From NCBI GenBank assembly GCA_964388035.1, contig CAYLZE010000086.1, forward strand, positions 1 to 21,835: a stretch of 21,835 nucleotides of DNA. The letters are read 5' to 3'. The position numbers were made by a program, and so were the translations under genes. Each line of letters opens with the position of its first letter. Position 1 is the stretch's first letter. Below the pieces are notes generated by a model, which saw only the letters and a list, made by a program, of their open reading frames with translations, was not told the DNA's origin and did not search any database. Positions 3,840 to 5,385 of the stretch are shown here, in pieces. This DNA comes from an uncultured archaeon. Its GTDB lineage: Archaea > Asgardarchaeota > Lokiarchaeia > Sigyniarchaeales > SOKP01.

Positions 3840-4841
3840 TTATTCGGACCTCCAGGGAATTGAAATATGATCCATTCGTTCTTTTGGTTTTATAATCGTA
3901 TCCATGATTTTATCCCCACCAGAGTGCTGATATCTTAATATACCCGTCCATGCTATCATTACTCCATTATCTCCCGCAAATTTTAACGGTACCACGTTGA
4001 ATTCTGCATCATGCTCTCGACTAATATATTCTATCATCTCCTGTAATCGCTTGTTGGCAGCAACACCACCAGTCAATAATACTTCTTTTTTTTCCGTGTG
4101 AGCTAAGGCTCTCTCAGTTACTTCTGTAAGCATCGCAAAAGCCGTTTCTTGGAGCGAATTTGCCACATCTTCTAAAGTATATGACTTATTGAATTGATCC
4201 GATTGGAGTAATTTTTTGGCCGCAGTATAAAGTCCTGAAAATGACAAATCCATTCCTTTAACCACGTATGGTAATAAAAGATATTTTTGTGATTTTGATG
4301 CGAGTTTTTCAATCTTGGGGCCTCCAGGATGAGCCAAACCCGCATCTCGGGCGAAAGAATCAATCATGTTACCTATGGGTAAATCAAGAGTTTCACCGAA
4401 AATCTGATATCTTGACGATTCAAAAGCACTTACAATGGTATTTCCTCCCGATACATAAAGAGTCAAGGGATCTCTTACCTTGCACATCAAGCGACCTATC
4501 TCCACGTGAGCGATGCAATGATTCACTCCTACGATTGGAATATTATTGAGTTGGCTTAATGTTCTCGCAACAACAGCCCCTACTTTTAAAACGGGGCCTA
4601 ATCCCGGACTTTGACTAAAGGCTATTAAATTAATATCTTTAAAATTTATCTTAGCTTCCGAGAGTGCCTTTAAAATTACATCCATGAAGTTGTTCAGGTG
4701 CTGTTCTTTTACCATGACGGGATGTAATCCGCCACTATCCGGAGTATATATATCATTAACTGAACTGAGAACAGTACCATCAAAGTCAATGATACCCACA
4801 CCAAAAGTATGAGCTGTTGATTCAATTCCAAGTGCAAGAAT
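3840..4841 (-). CDS. kae1: tRNA N6-threonylcarbamoyltransferase Kae1 (KEOPS); probable ATT start at 4841, upstream of the track's GTG at 4799
   Basis: GPGLG-like SPGLG, VNHCIAHVE, LYVSGGNT, GETLD, GGVAAN and DNG motifs. The frame extends upstream through L-A-L-G-I-E-S-T-A-H-T-F-G. Confidence 0.95.
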   Translation of the reverse strand: MLALGIESTAHTFGVGIIDFDGTVLSSVNDIYTPDSGGLHPVMVKEQHLNNFMDVILKALSEAKINFKDINLIAFSQSPGLGPVLKVGAVVARTLSQLNNIPIVGVNHCIAHVEIGRLMCKVRDPLTLYVSGGNTIVSAFESSRYQIFGETLDLPIGNMIDSFARDAGLAHPGGPKIEKLASKSQKYLLLPYVVKGMDLSFSGLYTAAKKLLQSDQFNKSYTLEDVANSLQETAFAMLTEVTERALAHTEKKEVLLTGGVAANKRLQEMIEYISREHDAEFNVVPLKFAGDNGVMIAWTGILRYQHSGGDKIMDTIIKPKERMDHISIPWRSE

Positions 4842-4847
4842 AGTTAA

Positions 4848-4853
4848 CTCCTC
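4848..4853 (-). promoter_or_regulatory. Shine-Dalgarno-like GAGGAG 6 nt upstream of the putative ATT start of kae1
   Basis: Minus strand reads GAGGAG TTAACT ATT CTT GCA CTT GGA ATT GAA. Confidence 0.55.
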
Positions 4854-5385
4854 GAAATAGTCTTCTATTCATTTATATTTATTTATACTCATTATTCAAA
4901 ACATTATTTTCAAAATTTAATGAGTTATTAAGGTAAAAAAGGAAAGAATGCAAAAATCTTTTTCTAAATCGCGGTAAAAAGTTAATAATGAAGTTAAATT
5001 TATTGAGATTCGGGAAATTAAAGAGGAAGAGAAAAAAAATTCATGTACTTAATATTCATGGTAGGTATTGATAAGATGGCTATATATCATGGGCATATGA
5101 AATCTTTTTCTGAATAGTTTTTACAAGTAGAATATTGCTATTACATCTTTACTTCCTCTTTAATTCTTGAACATATTTCCTTGATTTCAATATTATGATT
5201 TTTTCATAATTTTTCATAAATTAGCAGGTTATGTTCCTAAAAAGTCATAAAATAGCGTCCAAAATTCCTAACTTTTACTCTAAATTCTCAAATAACTTTA
5301 TAACTCTAACCAAATTTTTCATTTTGATGATTTTTTAATGCGTATTATAATTTAAACAAAAATAATAAAAGTAGTTAAGAAAAAA

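Follow-up and report, generated by a model that had tools for sequence, protein, structure and literature searches.

Translation of kae1 in an uncultured lokiarchaeon (Asgardarchaeota; Lokiarchaeia; Sigyniarchaeales) almost certainly begins at an ATT codon, judging from where protein alignments place the first residue and from the leader that precedes it. The gene lies on the minus strand of contig CAYLZE010000086.1 of the metagenome-assembled genome (MAG) GCA_964388035.1; the whole stretch of 21,835 nucleotides that was analysed is called the window. Comparison with other genes of this MAG and with its relatives suggests that the kae1 ATT is probably one instance of a lineage-wide practice, initiation at near-cognate codons led by a Shine-Dalgarno (SD) element, and not a dedicated sensor of the tRNA modification N6-threonylcarbamoyladenosine (t6A).

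The minus-strand letters in the kae1 frame are TGA (4871-4869) ATA GAA GAC TAT TTC GAG GAG TTA ACT ATT (4841-4839) CTT GCA CTT GGA ATT GAA TCA ACA GCT CAT, and no canonical ATG, GTG or TTG occurs in it between the TGA and the GIESTAH motif. The features of the start region are as follows.

3840 to 4841, minus strand: kae1 coding sequence as re-called, from ATT 4841 to the stop codon TAA at 3842-3840, 333 codons.
4839 to 4841, minus strand: putative initiation codon ATT (AUU), placed by alignment with Met1 of Pyrococcus abyssi Kae1 and with position 1 of profile NF007174.
4848 to 4853, minus strand: SD-like GAGGAG, 6 nt 5' of the ATT, with GAGG beginning 12 nt before the A of ATT.
4869 to 4871, minus strand: in-frame TGA that bounds kae1 on its 5' side, identical in contigs of two other sequencing runs.
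4797 to 4799, minus strand: GTG, the first canonical codon in the kae1 frame and the start picked by the standard list of open reading frames (ORFs).
4822 to 4872, minus strand: out-of-frame ATG 4872-4870 followed by 16 codons to TGA 4824-4822, overlapping the ATT.
4871 to 4887, minus strand: AT-rich TATAAATAAATATAAAT, a candidate TATA box read from the sequence.

The product scores 462 bits against NCBIfam model TIGR03722 (arch_KAE1; cut-off 375), covering model positions 2-323 of 323, and matches P. abyssi Kae1 (PDB 2IVN) over its full length (E=4.5e-107). It is 80-81% identical to its nearest orthologues and has no internal stops, and the gene is present in one copy in the 5.47-Mb, 211-contig MAG. 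KEOPS and Sua5 partner genes are at hand, with bud32 1 nt downstream and genes for Sua5-like, Cgi121 and Pcc1 proteins on contig C10. As a gene for the KEOPS t6A synthase, this kae1 is intact and single-copy. The codon following ATT is matched to residue 2 of 2IVN, which puts Met1 on ATT 4841; position 1 of profile NF007174 is the same codon, and both LALGIESTAHTFG and NHCIAH, the H-x-x-x-H metal site, agree with 2IVN column for column. The solved Kae1 proteins begin with Met where the MAG gene has ATT, and relatives have ATG in the aligned column. On these alignments, an intact N-terminal strand and G-I-E-x-T-A-H phosphate-binding motif would require translation from ATT 4841 or earlier, while a start at GTG 4799 yields a 319-residue product minus 14 residues that include strand 1 and GIESTAH.

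The leader agrees with this placement. The SD consensus of the genome, GGAGGTGA, has its first G at -15 to -12, and the commonest position of GAGG ahead of start codons is -14 to -11. In kae1, GAGG occupies -12 to -9, which as register -13 falls within the peak of -15 to -12, with an in-register run of 4. A genome of the same genus, G001, carries GAGGGA, 6 nt and then ATT in the same alignment column, and has none of the upstream ATGs. A preliminary description of this DNA, made from the sequence alone, had proposed a 333-residue Kae1 from ATT 4841 with GAGGAG 6 nt upstream, had noted the lack of any ATG, GTG or TTG between the TGA and GIESTAH, and had warned that the GTG start removes the first motif. 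Met1 of 2IVN, position 1 of NF007174, the SD register and the ATT of G001 all bear out this reading, and the letters themselves recur in contigs from two other runs.

Those contigs are Logan assemblies from other salt-marsh and sediment metagenome runs, X2 and X4, used where the presumed source run, X1, gave for this region no more than a short, off-target piece. The X2 contig covers 4648-5033 with 0 differences. The X4 contig, covering 4581-4916, comes from another strain, with five single-nucleotide differences elsewhere and 4797-4872 unchanged; no indel is listed in either contig over the kae1 start region. The MAG has low coverage and 211 contigs, and an assembly or sequencing error might have hidden a true ATG at 4841 or inserted one nucleotide after ATG 4872. 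With contigs of two other runs, one of them a distinct strain, matching over 4797-4872 without substitution or indel, and with a canonical kae1 start missing also from seven other species of the family to which the MAG belongs, such an error is hardly credible. The single extra A after ATG 4872 that the preliminary description offered as its alternative is refuted by the X2 and X4 contigs.

Initiation might instead occur elsewhere: at ATA 4868, which is itself near-cognate; by +1 frameshift from ATG 4872 or by read-through of TGA 4871 from ATG 4892, both of these ATG codons being present; or at GTG 4799, the choice of standard gene callers, with a truncated or dead protein as the result. The first three codons lack an SD, lie within an AT-rich, promoter-like stretch, and are not conserved in G001 or in other relatives without a canonical start. 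ATG 4892 is in frame but is separated off by TGA 4871-4869, a position occupied by TAA or TAG in relatives. GTG 4799 would cost residues 1-14, which the alignment matches to the phosphate-binding motif and strand 1 of solved Kae1 structures, in a gene whose single copy, unbroken frame and close identity to orthologues speak against a dead protein. All four were rejected as starts, for lack of SD and conservation or for loss of essential residues, and together they retain a very slight probability. The short ORF from ATG 4872 has no counterpart at that place in relatives without a canonical kae1 start; it is probably promoter DNA or a chance ORF. If TATAAATAAATATAAAT is a TATA box, the transcript would start near 4857-4849, thus 3' of ATG 4872 and ATA 4868. 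In genes of this genome without SD, a TATA-like peak is present about 30-35 nt ahead of the start codon, but it is too weak to fix a transcript start.

Evidence that kae1 is far from alone comes from 3,825 long ORFs of the MAG (G000). Codons were tested in frame, 4 or more codons ahead of the first canonical start, and scored by in-register SD 5-mers; the anti-SD was deduced from mRNA leaders, the MAG having no 16S rRNA. SD 5-mers were counted in registers -15 to -12, in that order.

ATT, in frame: 10, 20, 2, 6.
ATA, in frame: 4, 9, 2, 1.
ACG, in frame: 4 at register -14.
ATT, out-of-frame control: 0, 2, 2, 2.
AAT, TAT and TTA, controls: 0-3 per register.
First ATG codons: 54, 46, 31, 53.

Counts of SD, spacer and ATT that ignored ORF context gave no usable signal, ATG included. 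Strong-SD starts in the MAG number roughly 50 non-canonical (ATT, ATA, ATC or ACG) against about 250 canonical, and 67 candidate non-canonical starts were collected, most of them 0-2 codons past an in-frame stop. Eleven genes have Pfam support, in that profile positions 1-5 precede any canonical start. They are listed with the proposed start codon and its distance ahead of the first canonical start.

AOR: ATA, 75 codons.
ApbA: ATT, 29 codons.
Aldo-keto reductase (AKR): ATA, 81 codons.
Alpha/beta hydrolase: ATT, 53 codons.
AtpD: ATT, 62 codons.
Ras-like GTPase 1: ATC, 49 codons.
Ras-like GTPase 2: ATC, 56 codons.
DHDPS: ACG, 29 codons.
Creatinase_N: ATT, 39 codons.
ECH: ATT, 36 codons.
PCNA: ATT, 29 codons.

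Across the family, SD-led ATT, ATA, ATC and ACG starts share the anatomy of kae1: an in-register SD, a near-cognate codon at Met1, an in-frame stop just upstream, and the canonical start far downstream. Strong-SD starts were also counted in samples of three related genomes.

G024, same family, 400 kb sampled: 8 ATT, ATA or ATC versus 10 canonical.
G001, same genus, 240 kb sampled: 3 versus 8.
G038, complete genome of the neighbouring family, first 800 kb of contig C1: 3 versus 38.

Two other members of the family thus show the non-canonical start habit, which is weak in the neighbouring-family genome. By a rough orthologue-pair estimate, made noisy by antisense and fragment ORFs, the share of genes whose conserved N-terminus precedes every canonical start is about 4-6% for the family and 1.5% for G038. 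Occasional convincing ATT or ATC starts do occur in G038, at a much lower rate, and one TrmO/TsaA-like ORF there has its conserved N-terminus 111 codons ahead of any canonical start. A literature search found no paper on AUU starts in Asgard archaea or Lokiarchaea or on aIF1 autoregulation.

The 5' end of kae1 could be read in 125 of the 135 genomes of the family. ATG begins 97 of these genes and GTG 9, and one is unclear; the remaining 18 have ATT, ATC or ATA in the column where their neighbours have ATG. Orthologues uniform for ATG, GTG or TTG, the outcome that the preliminary description had named as counting against an AUU start, are not what the family shows. The 18 cases fall in genera g1 (2/2), g4 (4/4), g2 (5/41), g3 (2/6) and g11 (5/51). 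Since they span five genera, and since those within g2 and those within g3 differ in sequence among themselves, the codon must have switched several separate times. In 8 of the 125 genomes there is no canonical codon whatever before the kae1 motif. An in-register SD precedes 17 of the 18 non-canonical starts versus 27 of the 106 canonical ones (Fisher p 3e-8, uncorrected and not tree-aware). Genome G081 has TAA between GAGGTG and ATT, from which it is clear that the in-frame GTG of its clade belongs to the SD and is not the start. In the neighbouring family, where kae1 is fused to bud32, ATG was found in 6 of the 6 orthologues whose start region was read; the fused frames there are 570-640 aa long. 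The kae1 start codon is evolutionarily labile, with ATG, GTG and ATT, ATC or ATA interchangeable.

Control genes, read in one panel of 25 genomes from the family, set this lability in context.

kae1: 8/25 non-canonical in the panel, beside the 18/125 of the wider set.
Bud32: 0/25 non-canonical.
Sua5/YrdC-like: 0/25 non-canonical, ATG throughout.
PCNA: 2/23 full-length orthologues non-canonical, confined to the genus of the MAG.
AtpD: 17/22 non-canonical, with ATT, ATC, ATA and one ACG.
aIF1: ATT or ATC the sole option (ATC in two) in 19 of the 22 genomes in which the gene was found, G000 included.

In its use of non-canonical starts, kae1 is mid-range between these controls. No ATG, GTG or TTG precedes the CPxC..CxC zinc knuckle of aIF1 in those 19 genomes, and in the other three a GTG lies in or beside an SD-like stretch. 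The ATT or ATC of aIF1 sits behind a conserved AAGGTTGTGA-like element, and the gene of the MAG is located as follows.

Contig C78, 3060 to 3374 (L208, 1426 to 1740), plus strand: aIF1/SUI1 of G000, starting at ATT.

In the neighbouring family, aIF1 starts are a mix of GTG, TTG, ATG and possibly ATA. AtpD, which is subunit D of the A-type ATPase, has its non-canonical starts always directly after an SD that ends the upstream gene; in neighbouring families its start is ATG, GTG or TTG. PCNA of G000 and G001 reads AAGGTG, 7 nt, ATT, and the other 21 full-length orthologues of the panel have ATG in the same column. Cgi121 and Pcc1 of the MAG start at ATG.

An initiator tRNA was found in the MAG, with A1:U72, a GGG/CCC anticodon stem, the anticodon CAU, U36 and A37. 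Its gene, at C31:36337-36435, has a 23-nt intron after position 37. It is the one normal initiator tRNA returned by an anticodon-stem search; aragorn finds 7 tRNAs in the MAG, or 22 with introns allowed, and because it finds only 22, most tRNA genes are probably intron-rich or unassembled.

We infer from these observations, as the most economical reading, that the ordinary initiator tRNA(CAU) would decode AUU in kae1 as Met, with a mismatch at the third codon base, after the SD element 6 nt upstream has placed the small subunit on that codon. This would be possible because start-codon stringency is relaxed in the lineage: the whole family tolerates SD-led initiation at ATT, ATA, ATC and occasionally ACG, and the start-codon proof-reader itself, aIF1, is encoded almost always from ATT or ATC. 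Since it is, an infC-like set-point of aIF1 that permits AUU initiation in this family is a reasonable inference by analogy. The AUU of kae1 probably gives lower output than ATG.

The bacterial precedent is instructive in both directions. The infC product itself discriminates against AUU, and AUU is regarded as a conserved feature of infC. The gene, which encodes IF3, combines an AUU start with translational autoregulation, and archaeal aIF1 likewise discriminates against AUU in vitro (PMC4705826). Like infC, kae1 is a gene of the translation apparatus with an AUU codon behind an SD. It differs in that ATT, ATC or ATA occurs at kae1 in only 18 of 125 family genomes, such starts being shared with dozens of unrelated genes, and in that Kae1 touches initiation only indirectly, via t6A. 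Conservation of the AUU across orthologues was not found, 106 of the 125 using ATG or GTG. By this analogy the closer counterpart of infC in the lineage is aIF1, and kae1 is not.

The preliminary description had suggested a possible feedback loop in which low t6A relaxes initiation and Kae1 output rises; in fuller form, low t6A on the initiator tRNA would relax fidelity, raise AUU initiation and restore Kae1, much as with infC. In its favour, Kae1 makes t6A37, the initiator tRNA found has U36-A37, kae1 turned non-canonical several separate times in five genera, and its rate is above those of Bud32, Sua5 and PCNA. Yeast sua5/tcs2 deficiency offers a real but indirect tie of t6A to start-codon fidelity, t6A loss there roughly doubling the number of genes in which upstream starts at UUG, ACG or GUG are detected (PMC4717488). 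Yeast, however, is a scanning system in which UUG, GUG and ACG, not AUU, were measured and no feedback on a KEOPS gene was reported, and t6A37 is proposed to aid the pair between the first codon base and position 36, whereas in AUU it is the third base that is mismatched (PMC4717488). The loop finds no support in the genomes: dozens of unrelated genes here and in relatives use AUU, AUA or AUC; one would expect of a fidelity sensor a fixed start codon, like the ATT or ATC of aIF1 (19/22), and not a labile one like that of kae1; and the other t6A genes, Sua5, Cgi121, Pcc1 and Bud32, use ATG. We regard the loop as highly improbable and its pursuit as a low priority. The same low standing attaches to a variant in which, in species of the ATT type, a second fidelity loop sits atop that of aIF1, initiator tRNA without t6A37 working better at SD-led AUU so that Kae1 goes up as t6A falls. 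If true, this would account for kae1 becoming non-canonical repeatedly while Sua5 and Bud32 never do.

A weak start might also have been selected, with no sensing involved, to hold Kae1 low relative to Bud32 and the other KEOPS subunits. Because kae1 and bud32 are separate genes in this family and fused in the neighbouring one, their stoichiometry here must depend on translation; the start of bud32 is an ATG with a strong SD, and the non-canonical kae1 starts come with an SD (17/18). Yet most family members use ATG or GTG at kae1, often without an SD, and the same pattern would be expected equally if the start drifted near-neutrally in a lineage tolerant of ATT, ATC and ATA; such attenuation seems unlikely. 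That kae1 switched repeatedly, and Sua5 and Bud32 not at all, may mean that low Kae1 output is tolerated, or that it is selected for.

SD-led near-cognate initiation as a property of the lineage remains the probable account of the kae1 ATT, with several points weighing against it. The kae1 rate (8/125 by a strict count, 18/125 by an inclusive one) exceeds the rough all-gene baseline of about 4-6%, and it also exceeds the rates of Bud32, Sua5 and PCNA; there may be a gene-specific tolerance at kae1, or selection for a weak start. The family comparisons were made without phylogenetic correction, and the role given to aIF1 is a correlation. The kae1 SD is a core match of only 4 nt (GAGG), weaker than in most other ATT cases, and the start codon itself is a reading of sequence, alignment and SD register.

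AUU starts are already known, infC being the classic case, and kae1 is a further documented example whose main practical value is in the correction of annotation. Gene finders limited to ATG, GTG and TTG would take GTG 4799, leaving an essential enzyme without its first strand and its nucleotide-binding motif. Dozens of genes per genome in the family, among them PCNA, AtpD, HdrA and small GTPases, can be expected to suffer a like mis-call. The 125 genomes and the internal controls show that in this family ATG and ATT, ATC or ATA are interchangeable at SD-led starts, with aIF1 almost fixed at ATT or ATC, and the contrast of kae1 with aIF1 separates weak starts that are tolerated from those that are candidates for regulation.

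The organization around kae1 resembles that of P. abyssi (2IVN), with the N-terminal LALGIE.TAH strand, the NHCIAH metal site and an adjacent bud32, the two genes being separate in both. It differs from Methanocaldococcus jannaschii Kae1-Bud32 (2VWB/3EN9), where the two are fused, as in the neighbouring family. An Rfam search of the whole window returned zero matches. Two features belong to the downstream gene.

3164 to 3838, minus strand: bud32, the KEOPS kinase, a gene of its own with an ATG start 1 nt past the kae1 stop.
3848 to 3853, minus strand: GGAGGT, the SD of bud32, inside the last kae1 codons and 9 nt before ATG 3838.

At the 3' end of kae1, the codons for a conserved C-terminal P-W-R (CCx TGG AGG) also serve as the SD of bud32, 7-10 nt ahead of its start, and the TGGAGG element is found again in most orthologues of the family. 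Elsewhere in the window, the minus-strand ORFs at 10218-10580, 10951-11532 and 11885-12454 have TTG or GTG as their first canonical start.

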